NCBI GenBank assembly: GCA_041651095.1
Contig: JBAZJV010000004.1
Location: 7,735 to 71,734, forward strand
Source: Patescibacteria group bacterium
Lineage (GTDB): Bacteria > Patescibacteriota > Patescibacteriia > Patescibacteriales > UBA12465
DNA length: 64,000 nucleotides
Direction: 5' to 3'
Under the pieces are notes generated by a model that ran no database searches, had not been told where the DNA came from, and saw only the letters and a list, made by a program, of their open reading frames with translations. Each line of letters begins with the position of its first letter. The stretch's first letter is position 1. Of the stretch, positions 4,603 through 17,407 are shown piece by piece. The position numbers and the translations under genes were made by a program.

Positions 4603-5192
4603 ATGAATACCATTTCAACCAAAAACGGCACTATCACCATCAACGGCGACCTCTACCGCCGATTATTCAGCGAAGCGCAAATCATGTCTAGAGTTGGCGC
4701 GCTGGCAGCAGAGATCAAAAAAGATTATATATCCGAGGAGCGAACGCCGATATTATTATTAGTACTAACCGGCGGATTATACTTTGGATAGATCTATCCA
4801 AAGCTTTGTCAGATATCGGATTAAATCACCACCTGGACACCGTGGGGCTTAAACGGTATAGCGCCGATGAAAAAGGCGGCGCCGTAGAATTGCTGAGCCG
4901 GCCGCACGCCGATTTGGGCGACCGCGATGTCATCGTGGTAGAAGACGTGGTCGATAACGGCGCGACCATGAATTTCTTGCATGACTACCTGTCATATCTG
5001 CCCATCAAACCACGCTCCGTAAAATACTGCTTCCTGGGCATCAAGAATAATCACGGTCCGTTGAAATTTTCCACCAACTATCTGGGTTTCGATATCGAAC
5101 CAGCCTGGATCGTCGGATACGGTTTAGATTCCGGGCAAAGCTACCGCGGTTTAAGAGATATTTACCAAAAAATTGAAAACCCGGAAGCATAA
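4603..5192 (+). pseudogene. hpt: hypoxanthine phosphoribosyltransferase, interrupted by a single-nucleotide frameshift near 4783-4787
   Basis: frame 1 (4603-4791) gives Hpt N-terminus ...ILLLVLTGGLYFG*; frame 0 continues WIDLSKALSDIGLNHHLDTVGLKRYSADE...DRDVIVVEDVVDNGATM (PRPP-binding motif); join requires a 1-nt indel in the TTT run at 4783-4785. Confidence 0.8.
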
Positions 5193-6643: not shown

Positions 6644-6850
6644 TTAAATGTCGCCGAGCATTTCGACATAATCTGTCAGCCTGGCTTTGCCGCCAGCGAC
6701 GATTTCCGGGGGCCAACCTAGCTGCTTGATTTTGGTCTTAGTATTTTCACTTAAGCTGTCATACCAAGCACTATCCCCAGACTGTCCGCCGAGTTGTTGC
6801 TGTTCTTTATCGATTTGATCGATAAATTGCTTTGTTTCTACTTTGTTCAT
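6644..6850 (-). CDS. hypothetical protein (68 aa)
   Basis: ORF only. Confidence 0.3.
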   Translation of the reverse strand: MNKVETKQFIDQIDKEQQQLGGQSGDSAWYDSLSENTKTKIKQLGWPPEIVAGGKARLTDYVEMLGDI

Positions 6851-6885
6851 TTTGATCTCCTACGCTTTGATTATAATTTAGTTTT

Positions 6886-8142
6886 TTATACCTTTTTCAT
6901 CAACAAAATAGCGCTATTTCTATACCGGTCAACCCAATTATCAAGATAGGCGAAATCATGACCGGCTAATTCACGGACGACCTGCTTAACCTGGTATTTC
7001 TTTGACCTAAAGACTTCGATGCCGCCGTAATGCAAGACAATGAAACCGGTTTTTGGTTCATAACTCCATTTGGCCCGGCGATAATCGATCTGGCTGCTTT
7101 TTACTATTTGATTGACGGCGAAATTCAAATAATAAGGGTTAGCGCGGTACTTCTTAAAGGTTCGCGCAATATGATTCCTCAGCTGGAAACCAAGCAACAG
7201 CTTATCTCCCGGCCGGGTATTGCTCTGAAAAACCTTAAAGATTTCTGCTTGGTCACGAGAATTTCCAATCGTGTTCCCGACGCAGATATGAATGCTGTGC
7301 TTGGTCTGACCGAGATCCAGACGGGATCGATCCAAATTCTGAAATATATCGCAAATCAGATTGGCGCTAATATTTTTTCGCGGATATTCGATCTGCTTAG
7401 CTGCCAGTTTGCCGGCAAAAATATCCAGGAAGTCCTGACTGACATCAATGGCATTAAGTTTGACCGGCGACCGCGATTCGATCTGCCAGCGCACCAATTC
7501 CATCTCGGTTTCGGCCGTACCGATACCGTAGTAGACTTGGGTGTGATTGGCAATCTGCGGATAAATGGACAACCGATATTGCTCCAGGATAGCCAACTCG
7601 TTATTCCCGCACTTATAATGTACGGGGTTACAGAAAGCTACCATCAACCAGTCGCGGGGATTACGATACCACTGTTCGCCTTGTAATTCATGGCGACTCA
7701 ATTGGTCATTCAGCCTTTGATTTAATATTTCTTCCTTTTTGCGGCTAGCATAGGCTAGCGGCGCCAAAGCGATGACCGGCTGCGGTTTCAGGTATTCGCC
7801 AACTTTCCGGCTCTTGATGACCAGCCTGGTTTTAACTGGCACGGTTCGCGTGTCGTCAAAGCGATCAAGCCCGGATCTCATTTTTATGGAATCAGGATCA
7901 GAACCTGATGGGAAGGCATATTCCATCATATCCTTGGCTATTATTTTCCCGTGCCGCACCAAATAAGTGCCTAATGGACTGGATTCGATCACTTCACCGT
8001 CGCCCAATATATAGTGAAGATATGGACCGGAATATAATTCGGAATAATTCACCGTATCAATGGAGAATAAGCTGAGCAAGAAAACGAAAAAAACAAATAA
8101 GGCTTTAATGGCCCGTACTGCCTGAGTTTTGAACTTTTTCAT
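6886..8142 (-). CDS. EgtD-family (histidine N-alpha-methyltransferase-like) SAM-dependent methyltransferase with N-terminal signal/membrane anchor and ~130-aa extra N-terminal domain
   Basis: C-terminal half parallels the EgtD family by recall (YYGIGTAETEMELV ~ ELGSGTSEKT; ICVGNTIGN ~ FLGSTIGN; PGDKLLLGFQL ~ PGDSLLLGTDL; YRRAKWSYEPKTGFIVLHY ~ FEHVAKWNSDEERIEMWL); recall-based, needs an HMM check. Confidence 0.5.
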   Translation of the reverse strand: MKKFKTQAVRAIKALFVFFVFLLSLFSIDTVNYSELYSGPYLHYILGDGEVIESSPLGTYLVRHGKIIAKDMMEYAFPSGSDPDSIKMRSGLDRFDDTRTVPVKTRLVIKSRKVGEYLKPQPVIALAPLAYASRKKEEILNQRLNDQLSRHELQGEQWYRNPRDWLMVAFCNPVHYKCGNNELAILEQYRLSIYPQIANHTQVYYGIGTAETEMELVRWQIESRSPVKLNAIDVSQDFLDIFAGKLAAKQIEYPRKNISANLICDIFQNLDRSRLDLGQTKHSIHICVGNTIGNSRDQAEIFKVFQSNTRPGDKLLLGFQLRNHIARTFKKYRANPYYLNFAVNQIVKSSQIDYRRAKWSYEPKTGFIVLHYGGIEVFRSKKYQVKQVVRELAGHDFAYLDNWVDRYRNSAILLMKKV

Positions 8143-8236
8143 TTTGACCTCTTTCGGTTTATTGATTGTTAAAATACTTTTTTAGTTTCCTATTAATTTA
8201 CAATATTAATGATTTTATGTCAATAATAATTAAAAT

Positions 8237-8285
8237 AAAAAGGCGGGCATCAAAGATACGCCGCCTTATTTGTTGTCCTGTAGAT
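8237..8285 (-). terminator. rho-independent terminator of the small Cys-rich peptide gene
   Basis: minus strand AAGGCGGCGTATCTTTGATGCCCGCCTT then TTTTATTTT. Confidence 0.5.
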
Positions 8286-8291
8286 ACAAGA

Positions 8292-8414
8292 TTAACGAGT
8301 GGCCCCGGTTATATTGTTCCATTCCGATTTGCCGTTCTTACAACGACACCAACCAGTAAACCGACCTCCTTCACATTCGTATTCGTAACGACCAATTGTT
8401 ACCCAGTAGTACAT
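8292..8414 (-). CDS. unannotated 40-aa Cys/Trp/Tyr-rich peptide MYYWVTIGRYEYECEGGRFTGWCRCKNGKSEWNNITGATR
   Basis: strong SD GGAGGAGG 4 nt upstream of ATG (8414), stop TAA (8292-8294), own terminator and upstream promoter; below ORF-track cutoff. Confidence 0.5.
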   Translation of the reverse strand: MYYWVTIGRYEYECEGGRFTGWCRCKNGKSEWNNITGATR

Positions 8415-8498
8415 GGGTCCTCCTCCTTGATTATACGACTTTGTTAAAGAAATTAGTTAACTTTACTAAATCTACTGTTATATTGCTAACATTATTTG

Positions 8499-8527
8499 AT
8501 AATAACATATAAAATATATTATGTCAA
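8499..8527 (-). promoter_or_regulatory. putative promoter TTGACA-N17-TATTAT for the small peptide gene
   Basis: minus-strand hexamers (plus tgtcaa 8522-8527, ataata 8499-8504). Confidence 0.35.
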
Positions 8528-8548
8528 TTAAACTAATTTTATATTGTA

Positions 8549-8577
8549 TTGACAACAATCAACTTATATGATATAGT
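8549..8577 (+). promoter_or_regulatory. near-consensus sigma70 promoter TTGACA-N17-TATAGT for the 8637 gene, divergent from and back-to-back with the peptide promoter
   Basis: hexamers read directly; GGAGG SD before the GTG start. Confidence 0.45.
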
Positions 8578-8636
8578 AACCAGTTACTCATGTTCTTAAA
8601 AAATTAAATAACAATAAACAAAAAACGGAGGAACCC

Positions 8637-9824
8637 GTGAAAATATTATTAGCTTTCGTTAAAGTGGCGGTGGTTTTCCTGTTTATCTGGAACACCGGCA
8701 TTTTCTCTTATTTGACGCGGGGCATCTCTAAACAGGAAGTTTATGACCCCGCAACTACTCAAAAAATCCGGACTTTCTGTGTCCAACGGTATCAGGCGGC
8801 CAAAGCTCAGATAGATGCCGGCGGTACTTACTCGCTAGCTGAATACTTCACTGATCTGTCAGCCATCAAGAAACTACAGGACAGCCTGCATTGCCATGGC
8901 GGCTTCAATTGCGGCTATGGCGGTATTAATGAGTTGTGGGCGCTGTCCTTTGCTCAAAGCAAAGATCTCAGCCGGGAAGAAATCGACGCGGCTAGAGAAA
9001 AGTACCTGACTTATCAGCCAGAATCATTAAAAAGCGATCCGGCATTTTCGTGGCTCAAGCTCTTGATGACTATTCTCCATGGACTGACGACCTTGTATCT
9101 TAAGAATCTTCCCTGGGCGCTCTTAATGATGTTAATTTGGCTTAAAGAAGAAAACGCGGAACAAAACAAGCAGCTCCGTTTGAGAAGTCCACTAAGTTTC
9201 TTGATTAGCCTGATTCTCTACCCCATATTTTTCACCGTCGTCTTCATCCAAAAGTTCAAAAGTATCGGGCGCGGTTTTCTGGCAGCGGCGAGCATCCAGC
9301 AGACCAAAGAGAAATTCTTCAGCCTGTTGTCGCCGGATGAACTAACAGCGATCAGGCAATTTGCCAAAAGCAATATCAAGTTGCAGACTTTCCGGCAGAG
9401 TTTAGTCGCGGAAGGCTTAGTAAGCAGACGATCATTCGCTCTGGCTTCCCTATCACTAATCTTGTGCCTGTTTATCATTAATAATAGCCAGGCGAGCCAA
9501 AACACAAAAATTCCGACCAAAGCCCCGACCATTACCGTACTTGATGTCGGAAGCGGCAACTTAGACAAGCCGCCGAATCTTAATGATGAGGTACCAGCTC
9601 AAAGTTTTGCTGTTTTAACGGCAACGCCGCAGTACTTTGTTAAAGAAATTGGTAGAATCTATGAACAGAGGATAATGTCTCTGTCAACGCGAATACGAAA
9701 AATAGAACATATTCCTATACTCCGGTTAGTAAACCAGTCAATCAACTATTTACTAACCAAAAAGGGAAAGGAAAATGAAAACTATTATTTCAATATTGAT
9801 AGCATTAGCTATATTTACCAGTAA
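8637..9824 (+). CDS. hypothetical polytopic membrane protein (395 aa), low-GC
   Basis: multiple TM helices, GTG start with SD; no known domain. Confidence 0.5.
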   Translation: MKILLAFVKVAVVFLFIWNTGIFSYLTRGISKQEVYDPATTQKIRTFCVQRYQAAKAQIDAGGTYSLAEYFTDLSAIKKLQDSLHCHGGFNCGYGGINELWALSFAQSKDLSREEIDAAREKYLTYQPESLKSDPAFSWLKLLMTILHGLTTLYLKNLPWALLMMLIWLKEENAEQNKQLRLRSPLSFLISLILYPIFFTVVFIQKFKSIGRGFLAAASIQQTKEKFFSLLSPDELTAIRQFAKSNIKLQTFRQSLVAEGLVSRRSFALASLSLILCLFIINNSQASQNTKIPTKAPTITVLDVGSGNLDKPPNLNDEVPAQSFAVLTATPQYFVKEIGRIYEQRIMSLSTRIRKIEHIPILRLVNQSINYLLTKKGKENENYYFNIDSISYIYQ

Positions 9825-10614
9825 CTCTCTAGCACAAACTGATTCCGCCATCACCGCCAGCAAATATTTAGGCGTCTTATATACCGGTACCTACGATCAG
9901 GACACCAACCTCAAGAATAATGTCAGCCTCAGGCTGGGAAGCGACGCGGTCCTGCCGATAATGGATCAATTGAACCTGAACGTCAGGGGCGGCTACGAAA
10001 CCGGAACGGGCGGCAATTCAGCCTTCGGCAAATTCTATCTGGAATGGTCACCGGAATTTCTGAAATGCTATTTAGGCTACGCTCCCAGACCGATTACCCT
10101 GGTTTTCAAGCCAGCGCCGCTTAGCGCCGACGGACAGCTAGGGCGTTCCGCTTTAAAGCCTATCCCTGGATCCAATCTAGGCGCCTATGCAGCCAAAGAG
10201 ATCATTCCCGGGAAATTAAGCCTGATGGCCGGTTCATATTTCCTGGCACCGTCTAAATCAGTAGAATGGGACGGGTCAATAAAGTACAAGCCGGGAGCCA
10301 TAGAATTCCTATTGAGCGGCTATACCAGCCGAATCAATAGAGGCTTGGCCGTTGGATTCAAAACCGCGGCAATCTCGGTAACCGGGTTCACGACCAGTGA
10401 TTCGCTCTGGACGGCTTGGCTCAATGTCAAGACCAAGGTGCTCAATCCTTATGTCAGCATCACTTATAACCGCAACCGACATAAGTATGGGCAGATAGAA
10501 CTGGGCTGGGATAAGATCTTTTCCCTGCCCTACGGTGGAGCCAAGGTAAGAGCGGGTATGAGCTATGAATGTCAAGCTAAACTCCTTAATACTTTTGTAC
10601 AAATGTTCTTATAA
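9775..10614 (+). CDS. hypothetical secreted beta-rich protein (signal peptide, C-terminal ...VQMFL)
   Basis: N-terminal signal peptide MKTIISILIALAIFTSNSLA; alternating amphipathic pattern; 50-nt overlap with upstream gene. Confidence 0.5.
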   Translation: MKTIISILIALAIFTSNSLAQTDSAITASKYLGVLYTGTYDQDTNLKNNVSLRLGSDAVLPIMDQLNLNVRGGYETGTGGNSAFGKFYLEWSPEFLKCYLGYAPRPITLVFKPAPLSADGQLGRSALKPIPGSNLGAYAAKEIIPGKLSLMAGSYFLAPSKSVEWDGSIKYKPGAIEFLLSGYTSRINRGLAVGFKTAAISVTGFTTSDSLWTAWLNVKTKVLNPYVSITYNRNRHKYGQIELGWDKIFSLPYGGAKVRAGMSYECQAKLLNTFVQMFL

Positions 10615-10617
10615 ACC

Positions 10618-10655
10618 AAAGGCGTTCCCAAAAATCGGAACGCCTTTTTTATTTC
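10618..10655. terminator. bidirectional rho-independent terminator (AAAGGCGTTCC...GGAACGCCTTT)
   Basis: 11-bp perfect stem flanked by A-run and T-run. Confidence 0.55.
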
Positions 10656-10696
10656 TTCCAAGTTATCCTCTGGCCGAGCAGCCGGACCAGGTCCGA

Positions 10697-11638
10697 CTAC
10701 CTGTTGACGATAAATTCCACTAGGGCGAAAATCAGCCAGAAAGCCAGGAGGCCGCCCGCCTCCCGCCGGCTGATCGTCCGGCCGGAGCGCATGAAGCGGA
10801 ACAGGACGAACGAAGCGACCACCATGAACAGGCCGGTAACATAAATGATCTTCGGCGGGAAATAGAAAGGATTGATCAGGGCCAGCAGGCCGACCACGAT
10901 GGTAGCGTCCGCCAGCACGGTCCCCAGGATGTCTCCGACCGCCAGCGAATCATCCCGCTTCCTGACGGATTTCAGGGAAAAGAAAAACTCCGGCATGGTC
11001 GTACCCAGGCCGACTACCAGCATGCCGATCAGGATCGGGCTGATGCTGAAGTAATTGGCGATAAAAGTAGCGGAAACGACTGTAAAATGGGCGCCGATGA
11101 GCAGGACAGCCATGCTGAACAGGAGCAGCCAGAAATTTTTCCCGCGGCTTCCGTCGCCGTCTAAAGGCACGGTGCCGTCCGTTCCCTCTCTTAGCGCCAG
11201 ATAATAGAAAATGCCGCCGGCCAGAATAAGCACCAAGCCCTCCAGACGGGAAAAATGGCCGTTGAAGCCGAGTATCAGGGGCAGCAATAGGATGAGCGGA
11301 TAAACGACATGGTTCTTCAGGATCTTGCTTTCGATTTTCAAGCCCCGGCCGGCCAGCAGGATGATGACGGCAAAAACCAGGGTCAGATCCGCGATATTGG
11401 ATCCGAACAGCATGCCTAGACCGAATGAGGGAATGCCTTTAACGGCGGCGTTCAAGGAAATGAAGGTTTCCGGCAGAATGGAAATCACCGCGACGATGAT
11501 GAAGCCGACCGTGTATTTAGACAGCCGGTAGCTTTCGGCCAGCCGCGCGGCATAGCGCGTGGCTAAAGTTGCGCCCTTGATTACCAGGAAGAGCGCGAGG
11601 GCAAAAATGAATAAATTATTGAGCAAGGTCTGAGCCAT
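10697..11638 (-). CDS. Ca2+/cation antiporter (CaCA/YrbG-type sodium/calcium exchanger) membrane protein
   Basis: two alpha-repeat motifs GSNIADLTLV and GTTMPEFFFS, 10 TM. Confidence 0.6.
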   Translation of the reverse strand: MAQTLLNNLFIFALALFLVIKGATLATRYAARLAESYRLSKYTVGFIIVAVISILPETFISLNAAVKGIPSFGLGMLFGSNIADLTLVFAVIILLAGRGLKIESKILKNHVVYPLILLLPLILGFNGHFSRLEGLVLILAGGIFYYLALREGTDGTVPLDGDGSRGKNFWLLLFSMAVLLIGAHFTVVSATFIANYFSISPILIGMLVVGLGTTMPEFFFSLKSVRKRDDSLAVGDILGTVLADATIVVGLLALINPFYFPPKIIYVTGLFMVVASFVLFRFMRSGRTISRREAGGLLAFWLIFALVEFIVNR

Positions 11639-11714
11639 ATATATGCGTCTATTTTAACAAAAATACCCATTTTGGCAAAATTCGCTTCCTGGGGGCAGAC
11701 TTTTGCCTCAGACA

Positions 11715-11750
11715 AAATAAAAAATGGCCGCCTTGAATGGGCAGCCATTA
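11715..11750 (-). terminator. rho-independent terminator after the 11763-12551 gene
   Basis: minus strand ATGGCTGCC...GGCGGCCAT then TTTTTTATTTT. Confidence 0.4.
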
Positions 11751-11762
11751 ATTTCTAAGAAC

Positions 11763-12551
11763 TTAGGCCAGAGCCAGTAAAACACAGAATAGAGCGACGG
11801 TAATCACCGTCTCGCTCCGACTGGCCTGCTTACGGTAAATCAGATGCCAGGCGGTCAAAATAAAGAGGATGACGGCAATGGCGACCATAGATTGTTGGAA
11901 TAAATTGCCGGTGAATCTTAGTAAAGACAGCATCATCGCTCCCACGATCAGTAGCAGGCTGCCAGCTATTTGAAGGACTTTATCCGTTCCCAGCACCATC
12001 GGCAAGGTCACCCGTCGGCCGTTATTGGCAATGATGTCTTTGACGTCCTTAATCATCTCCCGCGAGAGATGGGCTAGGGCGGCGATAGCCAGCGCCCAAG
12101 GAACCAAAGGATGGGTAAAACTCCCCGCTTGCCAGCCAATCGCAACCGGCGTAGCGCAGACCAGGCTCATCGTCAGATTTTTCGTTAACCAATGGGATGA
12201 TAGTTTAGCTGAATAAGCGGCGACGGCAATGGTGTTGAACAACGCGATATACACGCATTGTTTGGGTAGCCACTGGACCGCGATAAAGACAGAGGCGCAA
12301 AAAATTACCAGACCGGCCAGCATCACCACCTGGGGGTCTTTGAATTTCAACCGTTCGGATTTGCGGGCATACATCCAATTCGCCCCGCCGTAATGGTAGA
12401 AACTGGCGCCGACAGTGCTAAGCGCCATGGTCAGGGCGGCAGCGAGCGACGAACGGAAATCTGCCCCGCAGGCTTGGGAAACTATCCAGGCGGCCAGACC
12501 ACCGGAAATGGGCAGGACCGGCCTGATAAGCTTATACGTAAGGTACCACAT
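11763..12551 (-). CDS. divergent UbiA-like prenyltransferase-family membrane protein
   Basis: 8 TM; second-motif-like KDVKDIIANNGRRVTLP; first NDxxD motif not evident. Confidence 0.35.
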   Translation of the reverse strand: MWYLTYKLIRPVLPISGGLAAWIVSQACGADFRSSLAAALTMALSTVGASFYHYGGANWMYARKSERLKFKDPQVVMLAGLVIFCASVFIAVQWLPKQCVYIALFNTIAVAAYSAKLSSHWLTKNLTMSLVCATPVAIGWQAGSFTHPLVPWALAIAALAHLSREMIKDVKDIIANNGRRVTLPMVLGTDKVLQIAGSLLLIVGAMMLSLLRFTGNLFQQSMVAIAVILFILTAWHLIYRKQASRSETVITVALFCVLLALA

Positions 12552-15499: not shown

Positions 15500-15919
15500 T
15501 TAAGAGGACGGCTCGGCGTTGTTATTGGCGATCAGAGCCCAAACTTCCTCCTCATAACCTGCTTGCACCAATGCCAGATTCTTACAATGACGGGAGTAAA
15601 TCGGGGTACGGGATTCGATATACTGTTCAGGAATAGAGTCGAATTCCCTGGTGTGTCCCATCCAAATGGCGATGTTTTTACGGTCGTTGCCAAAATAAGA
15701 AGAATCAACCAGCTTCAGGATCATTCTGGACCCATGAATCTTTTTGCAATTATAAATCGCGAAATTAGTCCTTTCAATAAGTAGATCAGCCGTCACGATA
15801 TCACCAGGTTCGACATCGCTTTCCCTGGATACCAGGTGATACTTCTGGTTGTACATCTTACTGGCCAGGACATAACCGTCTCCCCGACCGTAAGTCACTT
15901 CACGAATTTCAATCATCAA
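15500..15919 (-). CDS. hypothetical protein with weak resemblance to the C-terminal half of YfcE-type metallophosphoesterases
   Basis: GHT motif in IAIWMGHTREFD; N-terminal DxHG absent; low GC. Confidence 0.25.
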   Translation of the reverse strand: MMIEIREVTYGRGDGYVLASKMYNQKYHLVSRESDVEPGDIVTADLLIERTNFAIYNCKKIHGSRMILKLVDSSYFGNDRKNIAIWMGHTREFDSIPEQYIESRTPIYSRHCKNLALVQAGYEEEVWALIANNNAEPSS

Positions 15920-16090
15920 GACCTCCGTAGTAAGTTTATCCCTCGGTTAGTTATCATTGTCTCGGCTATGAGGGACCAAGTTTGCCGATTTTTTTAAAAG
16001 AAAAGTAATAAAAAATAATACCACGAGGATATTATTTTTGTCAATTCCTTAGCGAATATAGCCTTTACTTCAAGATAAATTTGAATAACA

Positions 16091-17071: not shown

Positions 17072-17100
17072 GAAAAAACGAGTTCTTCACTCGCTTTTTC
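17072..17100 (-). terminator. rho-independent terminator immediately 3' of tRNA-Asn
   Basis: minus strand AAAAAGCGAGTGAAGAACTCGTTTTTTCTTTT. Confidence 0.4.
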
Positions 17101-17105
17101 TAGAG

Positions 17106-17407
17106 CTCCCGGGGTGGGATTCGAACCCACGACCAATTGGTTACACTTATCCTCATGTTTCCATGCGGGGTGGACTATATCATCATCCGCTGAATACGGA
17201 TGCGGGGCGCTTCGGGCCGCCCTATGGGCGGACCTACTCCCTTTCGGGATAGTCTCTGAACCTTCTCTATAATAGAGCTTGGCTGCTGATTACCATATCC
17301 TTTCAGATTTAGGCTTCCAGCAATTCACCTCGTTTTCACCCTCTGATTGCTCAAAGGGGCTGCGTTTATGTTCACAGCCAACTGCGCTACCGCTGCGCTA
17401 CCCGGGA
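17106..17407 (-). tRNA. tRNA-Asn(GUU) interrupted by a 230-nt group I intron (exons 17374-17407 and 17106-17143; no encoded CCA)
   Basis: exons fold into cloverleaf: acceptor UCCCGGG/CCCGGGA, D-arm GCGC-AGCGGTA-GCGC, anticodon stem GUUGG/CCAAU with loop CUGU|UAA, variable UGGUC, T-arm GUGGG-UUCGAAU-CCCAC, G73; near-identical to E. coli tRNA-Asn outside the stems. Confidence 0.85.
17144..17373 (-). other. group I self-splicing intron (IC3-like) in anticodon loop between U35 and U36
   Basis: R element GUUCAGAGACUA (plus 17250-17261), S element GAUAUAGUCC (17172-17181), Q-like AAUCAGCAGCCAAG, IGS GCAGCC pairing exon GGCUGU with U.G at splice site, terminal G. Confidence 0.8.

Follow-up and report, generated by a model that had tools for sequence, protein, structure and literature searches.

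Leaderless class IId bacteriocins (aureocin A53, lacticin Q, enterocin L50) are Trp-rich peptides of about 40-50 aa that carry no leader; they are strongly cationic amphipathic helices, and they are encoded beside ABC transporters and immunity genes. In nisA-type RiPP layouts, a precursor gene is followed by an attenuating hairpin and then by modification enzymes. The locus described here lies in a 64-kb stretch of Patescibacteria (candidate phyla radiation) DNA that was analysed as a whole (hereafter the window) and encodes a 40-aa peptide that shares with the class IId bacteriocins its size, its leaderless form, and its Trp-rich composition. It was nonetheless rejected as a member of that class on account of a pI of 8.6, a charge of about +2, predicted beta-strands, and the absence of an ABC transporter or immunity gene from the locus. 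As in the nisA-type layouts, a small open reading frame (ORF), a hairpin, and an enzyme gene occupy one strand; unlike in those layouts, no RiPP enzyme family is represented, the enzyme gene has its own conserved promoter, and one orthologue locus is peptide-less. Unannotated bacterial small proteins of ≤50 aa, with a promoter, Shine-Dalgarno (SD) sequence, and terminator of their own, have been catalogued in E. coli and in Gram-positive bacteria (PMC10730256, PMC11429745). We consider the unit to be, with a probability of roughly 55%, an independently transcribed, lineage-specific gene for a small cytoplasmic protein that annotation pipelines have missed.

A promoter-to-terminator unit around a 40-codon frame

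The elements of the small unit and the genes that flank it are the following.

8292..8414, minus strand: 40-codon ORF, ATG to TAA (TAA at 8294-8292), encoding MYYWVTIGRYEYECEGGRFTGWCRCKNGKSEWNNITGATR
8428..8419, minus strand: SD sequence AAGGAGGAGG, followed by ACCC and the ATG, that is, 4 nt before the start
8415..8492, minus strand: predicted 5' leader of ~78 nt, AT-rich, containing the SD
8499..8527, minus strand: small-unit promoter, TTGACA-17-TATTAT, 11/12 match to consensus, with an extended -10 TG
8296..8272, minus strand: small hairpin preceding the terminator, from RNA folding
8267..8240 (G+C-rich stem) and 8239..8230 (T-run), minus strand: intrinsic terminator, from folding and a consensus scan
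8230..8296, minus strand: 3' end of the small unit, overall
8549..8577, plus strand: divergent promoter for the 395-aa gene, TTGACA-17-TATAGT, 11/12 match, TG-extended
8637..9824, plus strand: 395-aa membrane protein with a GTG start and three hydrophobic segments (NCBI hypothetical protein WC453_02685)
9775..10614, plus strand: 279-aa ORF (272 aa at NCBI) with an N-terminal signal-like segment
8195..8223, minus strand: the methyltransferase's own promoter, TTGACA-17-TAAATT, conserved in a 63%-identical orthologue locus
6886..8142, minus strand: 418-aa EgtD-like (Methyltransf_33) protein with an N-terminal hydrophobic anchor

An in-frame TAA lies 18 nt 5' of the ATG, which makes a longer ORF impossible and fixes the start, and the minus-strand read-out into that start is TCAAGGAGGAGGACCC-ATG. 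In the proposed course of expression, a near-consensus sigma-70-type promoter with an extended -10 would start the transcript near 8492, and the leader would present an exposed SD before the ATG at 8414; in the MFE fold of the predicted mRNA, the SD is mostly unpaired. The 40 codons would then be translated, and the transcript would end at the intrinsic terminator ~25 nt past the stop codon, where the 3' end folds with a dG of -21.5 kcal/mol (z = -4.3 relative to shuffles). The methyltransferase gene downstream and the membrane-protein operon upstream would be driven by separate promoters, and the -35 boxes of the two divergent promoters stand 21 bp apart.

All sequence elements on which the original prediction of a "hidden transcription unit" was built are real. 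The 40-aa minus-strand ORF at 8414-8292 has exactly the coordinates and the translation that had been proposed, the SD-ACCC-ATG arrangement precedes it, and both TTGACA-N17 promoters lie where they had been placed, each matching 11 of 12 consensus positions, including the back-to-back plus-strand promoter ahead of the GTG-start membrane gene at 8637. Promoter, SD, start, ORF, and terminator follow one another in the correct relative order. For the terminator, a hairpin with a T-run was found as described, but its stem (8267..8240) is narrower than the 8237-8285 originally assigned to it. The small ORF is indeed uncalled: the protein collection lists no gene from any source at this position, and the gene calls on a Logan contig of SRR8542065 that carries identical DNA skip it as well. 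A 93-aa plus-strand ORF (8166..8447) was rejected as a competing gene, given its TTG start, its lack of an SD and of a promoter, and its course across the terminator. The unit has no other copies in the window, so that a mobile repeat was also set aside.

Composition, translation signals, and relatives of the small frame

The small ORF has a GC content of 44.7%, against 27.5% and 24.3% in the spacers on either side, and is nearly equal in this respect to the flanking genes (45.2% and 43.9%). At 30-nt resolution, a GC-normal block at 8240-8430 comprises the terminator, the ORF, and the SD, and its surroundings fall to 10-25% GC. The expectation of strongly AT-rich flanks was thus borne out (24-28%), but the background against which they stand had been put too high at ~55%, the actual values being 51% for the window and 44-45% for the neighbouring genes. 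In gaps without an ORF or RNA candidate, the GC fraction of any 120-nt window reaches at most 0.36; the gap holding the small unit reaches 0.47, close to the gaps with small ribosomal-protein genes or an intron, which exceed 0.5.

The odds that the expression signals arose by chance were estimated in several ways. Across 20,000 Markov simulations preserving the spacer's dinucleotide make-up, two 11/12 promoters in the 222-bp spacer had a probability of ~5e-4, and a similar value (~5e-4) was obtained for an SD match of at least 7 nt in a 15-nt window of the gap's composition. Window-wide, about 2 ATGs with an SD match of at least 7 nt were expected by chance and 2 were observed, so the SD by itself falls short of significance; taken together with the single long frame, the promoter, and the terminator, it becomes significant. 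The window contains 9 near-consensus TTGACA-17-TATnAT sites, the majority of which include the TG motif, and the TG-extended TTGACA-17 promoter appears to be the organism's own type.

The small ORF has the strongest SD in the window when compared with all long genes and with intergenic small ORFs, and its SD-to-start spacing and its bracketing by a promoter and a terminator are those expected of a genuine small coding ORF. Its initiation context, GGAG(G)(A)ACCC-start, is common to the 395-aa gene (GGAGGAACCC-GTG, with the SD GGAGG at 8627-8631) and to the UbiA-family gene at 12551 (GGAGTAACCC-ATG). No SD match was found at 43 of the 51 long genes in the window, and the enrichment of SDs at gene starts was not significant window-wide (p = 0.13). 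An anti-SD motif has been detected in only 48% of Parcubacteria, some of which lack it in their 16S rRNA (PMC9297842); an Rfam scan located no 16S rRNA of the host within the 64-kb window. The codon log-odds of the small ORF came to -0.06 per codon, relative to 0.28 ± 0.16 for real 40-codon segments and -0.13 ± 0.23 for spurious ORFs, which corresponds to the 3rd percentile of the real segments and the middle of the spurious-ORF distribution. However, the neighbouring low-GC genes also score low (0.10-0.14, with segments scattered from -0.19 to 0.31), so we regard the codon test as neutral rather than negative; usage was scored with a window-wide model and with an island-only model, and neither discriminated. 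We infer the transcription and translation of the small ORF from these sequence signals.

The leading alternative is a small non-coding RNA of ~250 nt in which the 40-codon frame is incidental, a reading that we consider unlikely. The promoter, the terminator, and the GC block would fit such an RNA equally well, the codon usage of the frame is not gene-like, and, in a genome that mostly does without SDs, a purine run resembling one does not have to signal translation; moreover, a stop-free run of 40 codons would arise by chance with a probability of ~0.1 or more at the local composition, by a rough estimate. Against this, an ATG that has a properly spaced SD of at least 7 nt and also opens the sole long frame, which stops shortly ahead of the terminator, has a combined probability of ~1e-3 in a transcript of this size, by an estimate from the figures above. 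The fold of the whole small-unit transcript is not unusual in energy (z = -1.4), so a structural RNA is not favoured, and membership of an Rfam family was rejected, as no covariance model matched at E ≤ 1 in 7500-9500 and the window-wide scan gave no match there at gathering scores.

Relatives of the peptide were sought in protein and DNA collections. Searches covering ~15 billion proteins, as well as the DNA of metagenomes, viruses, plasmids, and phages, turned up no homologue. A word-indexed search of 5.8 billion clusters and an exact-sequence look-up returned no relative, as did a search of PDB sequences and a tblastn search of plasmids and phages; NCBIfam, PHROGs, and PADLOC gave no match to the peptide, and thus no phage or defence-system family. 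A phmmer search of 1.84 billion representatives, in which ~35 bits were needed for E ≤ 0.001, returned 8 matches, all of them long repeat proteins of unrelated type (FxGW hairpin, YRDAQGR, and tandem ~100-aa repeats), whose low E-values arose because many weak repeat matches were summed. The Pfam family Flg_new scored 13.3 bits against a gathering cutoff of 27 (E = 0.094, 24 of 65 profile positions), and membership was rejected for falling below that threshold. The best Foldseek match in the PDB, a blade of the RSL lectin, was non-significant (E about 6). For the DNA scans, back-translated patterns were made degenerate by means of synthetic alignments, and matches were confirmed against the real peptide. 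Viral contigs and metagenome contigs, each scanned twice with the degenerate patterns, yielded nothing, and the genome collection gave a single match, discarded because it is a 9-residue stretch shared by chance with a PQQ-propeller-like protein (399 aa) from a Planctomycetota MAG. By a rough estimate, an orthologue at least ~50% identical would score near those ~35 bits and would probably have been detectable by phmmer if it had been called as a gene; with the small ORF itself missing from the gene calls of every source, little weight can be given to the lack of relatives.

That the peptide is a complete orphan fits a second alternative, which we rate as quite unlikely, namely a non-functional or marginal unit in which a recent or imported ORF bears expression signals and its product is not maintained by selection. 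The position of the unit among orphan and near-orphan genes, in a block of 44-45% GC as opposed to 51% for the window, is consistent with this, as is a codon usage resembling that of non-genic frames. On the other hand, a near-perfect promoter, SD, and terminator would decay fast without selection, the GC block stops sharply at the edges of the ORF and terminator, and the promoter is of the host's own type.

The EgtD-like methyltransferase and the wider neighbourhood

The methyltransferase gene lies on the same strand as the peptide, 150 nt downstream, and is treated here as a context gene. Its family is rare, with only 4 members in the 5.8-billion-cluster database, but well conserved, with 123 invariant columns. 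The lineage is thinly sampled, and the three relatives, at 63, 54, and 44% identity, lie on contigs of 1.6-2.3 kb. At the 63%-identical locus (L002, Logan SRR22387810_223630), both the promoter and the leader of the methyltransferase gene have been preserved, and a terminator unlike the one here lies upstream on the same strand; 152 nt upstream of the enzyme gene are available, and the contig ends 10 nt past that terminator. At a further locus (L004, SRR14702244_203231), a hairpin and T-run occur upstream of the methyltransferase within the 48 nt available. The 54%-identical locus (L003) has a divergent gene at the position of the peptide and no small ORF. The co-occurrence of peptide and enzyme is thus absent at L003, and the sequence of L002 and L004 extends 152 and 48 nt upstream, respectively. 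The N-terminus of the methyltransferase consists of a K/R-rich segment followed by a hydrophobic segment, an arrangement that predicts an enzyme anchored in the membrane with its enzyme domain outside the cell, an unusual location given its dependence on SAM.

The EgtD family methylates aromatic amino acids, and the peptide, rich in Tyr and Trp, is encoded close by on the same strand. These facts fit a tie between the two, with the peptide serving either as a precursor or substrate of the enzyme or as a leader peptide controlling terminator read-through, and the same-strand terminator-like hairpin found just 5' of the enzyme in L002 and L004 points in the same direction. Several observations nonetheless make such a tie very unlikely. 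The enzyme has its own promoter and 5'UTR, both conserved in L002, and L003 has a divergent gene upstream in place of a small ORF. Neither a candidate antiterminator, judged by eye as upstream sequence able to pair with the arms of the terminator, nor a run of regulatory codons near the terminator was seen, and the surroundings lack any known RiPP enzyme, peptidase, or transporter. An N-terminal Met-Tyr is not a substrate of methionine aminopeptidase, which would leave the alpha-amine of Tyr2 inaccessible, and the K/R-rich anchor would place the enzyme domain outside the cell. In the literature searched, no paper linking EgtD to RiPP precursors was found. A more specific form of the idea, in which the adjacent membrane-anchored enzyme has the peptide as its own specific partner or substrate, the two forming an undescribed modification or sensing pair confined to one Patescibacteria lineage with the hairpin setting the peptide:enzyme ratio, strikes us as highly improbable. 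A classical attenuator leader of the trpL/hisL kind was rejected because no antiterminator candidate was seen by eye and a conserved promoter serves the downstream gene separately; the MFE fold also keeps the terminator intact.

The original prediction had proposed a check of the RiPP context, which turned out negative, with no RiPP, bacteriocin, or transporter genes within ~9 kb of the peptide. Pfam and NCBIfam searches of the neighbouring genes, together with the precomputed Pfam annotation of the 18-kb locus, identified no YcaO, LanB/C/M, radical SAM, C39 ABC transporter, or immunity gene, and the peptide was accordingly rejected as a RiPP precursor, the neighbourhood lacking any recognised modifying enzyme, protease, or transporter. 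Pfam families represented in the locus include PadR, PspC, UbiA, Na_Ca_ex, Methyltransf_33, DUF7670, M23, and others, and the window also carries the S10/spc ribosomal-protein cluster. On the divergent side, the protein database contains no relative of the 395-aa protein; an apparent cluster variant was dismissed because the two differ solely in the initial residue (V versus M). The last 50 nt of the 395-aa gene are shared with the 279-aa ORF.

Further observations concern the surrounding DNA. SD-bearing starts cluster at 6644..12551, where six neighbouring starts have them (a 68-aa ORF, the methyltransferase, the peptide, the 395-aa gene, the 279-aa gene, and the UbiA-family gene). The GC content here is mostly 44-48%, below the 51% of the window, and the genes have few relatives or none; the cluster may be either an island of imported DNA or an SD-led gene class in an otherwise SD-independent genome. 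At 15500..15916 on the minus strand, a 138-aa ORF with no Pfam match has a GGAGGT SD and a TG-extended 11/12 promoter at 16044..16015, an architecture that is the same as that of the peptide unit. At 17085..17407, also on the minus strand, lies a tRNA gene that ARAGORN missed and that contains a full-length group I intron in its anticodon loop (Rfam RF00028, 88 bits, 17384..17151). Once the intron was removed in silico, ARAGORN called the tRNA, and splice sites obeying the rule that the exon ends in U and the intron ends in G give tRNA-Thr(UGU) or tRNA-Asn(GUU). A phosphoribosyltransferase gene at 4603..5192 on the plus strand, HPRT-like by reading, shows an apparent frameshift near 4790-4806 that separates a 62-aa N-terminal piece (GGAGG SD, ATG at 4603) from a 128-aa C-terminal piece in another frame (Pfam Pribosyltran); the split could reflect a pseudogene, an assembly error, or recoding.

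The predicted product and known peptide classes

The product of the small ORF would have a mass of 4.79 kDa, a pI of 8.6, a GRAVY of -0.93, 20% aromatic residues, three Cys, and a net charge of about +2. Neither a signal peptide nor a hydrophobic or transmembrane segment was found in the 40 aa, the hydropathy threshold being unreached, and with no export signal and no membrane segment the peptide should stay in the cytoplasm. A single-sequence AlphaFold model placed strands at residues 2-7, 10-16, 20-25, and 32-36 with a pLDDT of 73.5. The antisense frame of the same DNA, modelled as a control, reached an approximately equal 70.8, so the model was given no weight as evidence of a fold. With low confidence, the alternation of aromatic and charged residues in the peptide (e.g., Y-E-Y-E-C-E), a pattern typical of amphipathic beta-hairpins, may give rise to such hairpins, and the only weak similarities of the peptide are to beta-hairpin repeats; as a sheet of 40 residues would be unable to bury its aromatic face alone, self-association or docking on a larger partner would be expected. 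In the predicted strand register of this weak model, C23 and C25 lie on one face of the sheet and C14 on the opposite face, which would make an intramolecular three-Cys metal site unlikely. Any metal or redox site would then form between chains, and the CxC pair might, again with low confidence, take part in such an intermolecular site. Fold and function are likewise inferred.

The functions originally suggested for the peptide (metal binding, a toxin, a bacteriocin-like factor, or signalling) found no supporting evidence: the peptide lacks a signal peptide and a hydrophobic segment, and it stands outside any RiPP or bacteriocin context. Residues 15-17, "EGG", fall outside any double-glycine leader consensus by inspection. 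A type I toxin was rejected because of the GRAVY of -0.93 and the absence of a hydrophobic segment, and also because no plus-strand promoter is positioned to read across the ORF. The small unit is probably a real small-protein gene, and a link to bacteriocins or peptide natural products is absent from the locus.

If translated, the frame would encode a further lineage-specific micro-protein within the large share of candidate-phyla-radiation coding sequence that annotation has not captured, in a case where gene callers miss the unit with the strongest ribosome-binding site in 64 kb. The unit also makes a convenient test case: most genes here are SD-less, yet a cluster of neighbouring genes to which it belongs has GGAGG-type sites, so that one may ask whether SD-led initiation still operates in this genome. 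The finding, a small orphan ORF absent from annotation, is of an ordinary kind and has a modest chance of amounting to more, and otherwise no new mechanism is indicated.

Among known sequences, residues 5-34 of the peptide resemble the "Y..E..G..F.GW....NG" hairpin motif of the Listeria-Bacteroides repeat (Flg_new), and the proteins matched by phmmer are made up of repeats of this sort; all scores against Flg_new repeats and against RSL-type lectin or propeller blades are sub-threshold, and common ancestry with either is unsupported. Many characterised small proteins consist of a single transmembrane helix or have conserved relatives, whereas this peptide is hydrophilic, beta-predicted, and relative-less. 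In its genetic organisation, the unit is like the catalogued small proteins, being monocistronic and intergenic, with a strong RBS and a length below the thresholds of gene callers.
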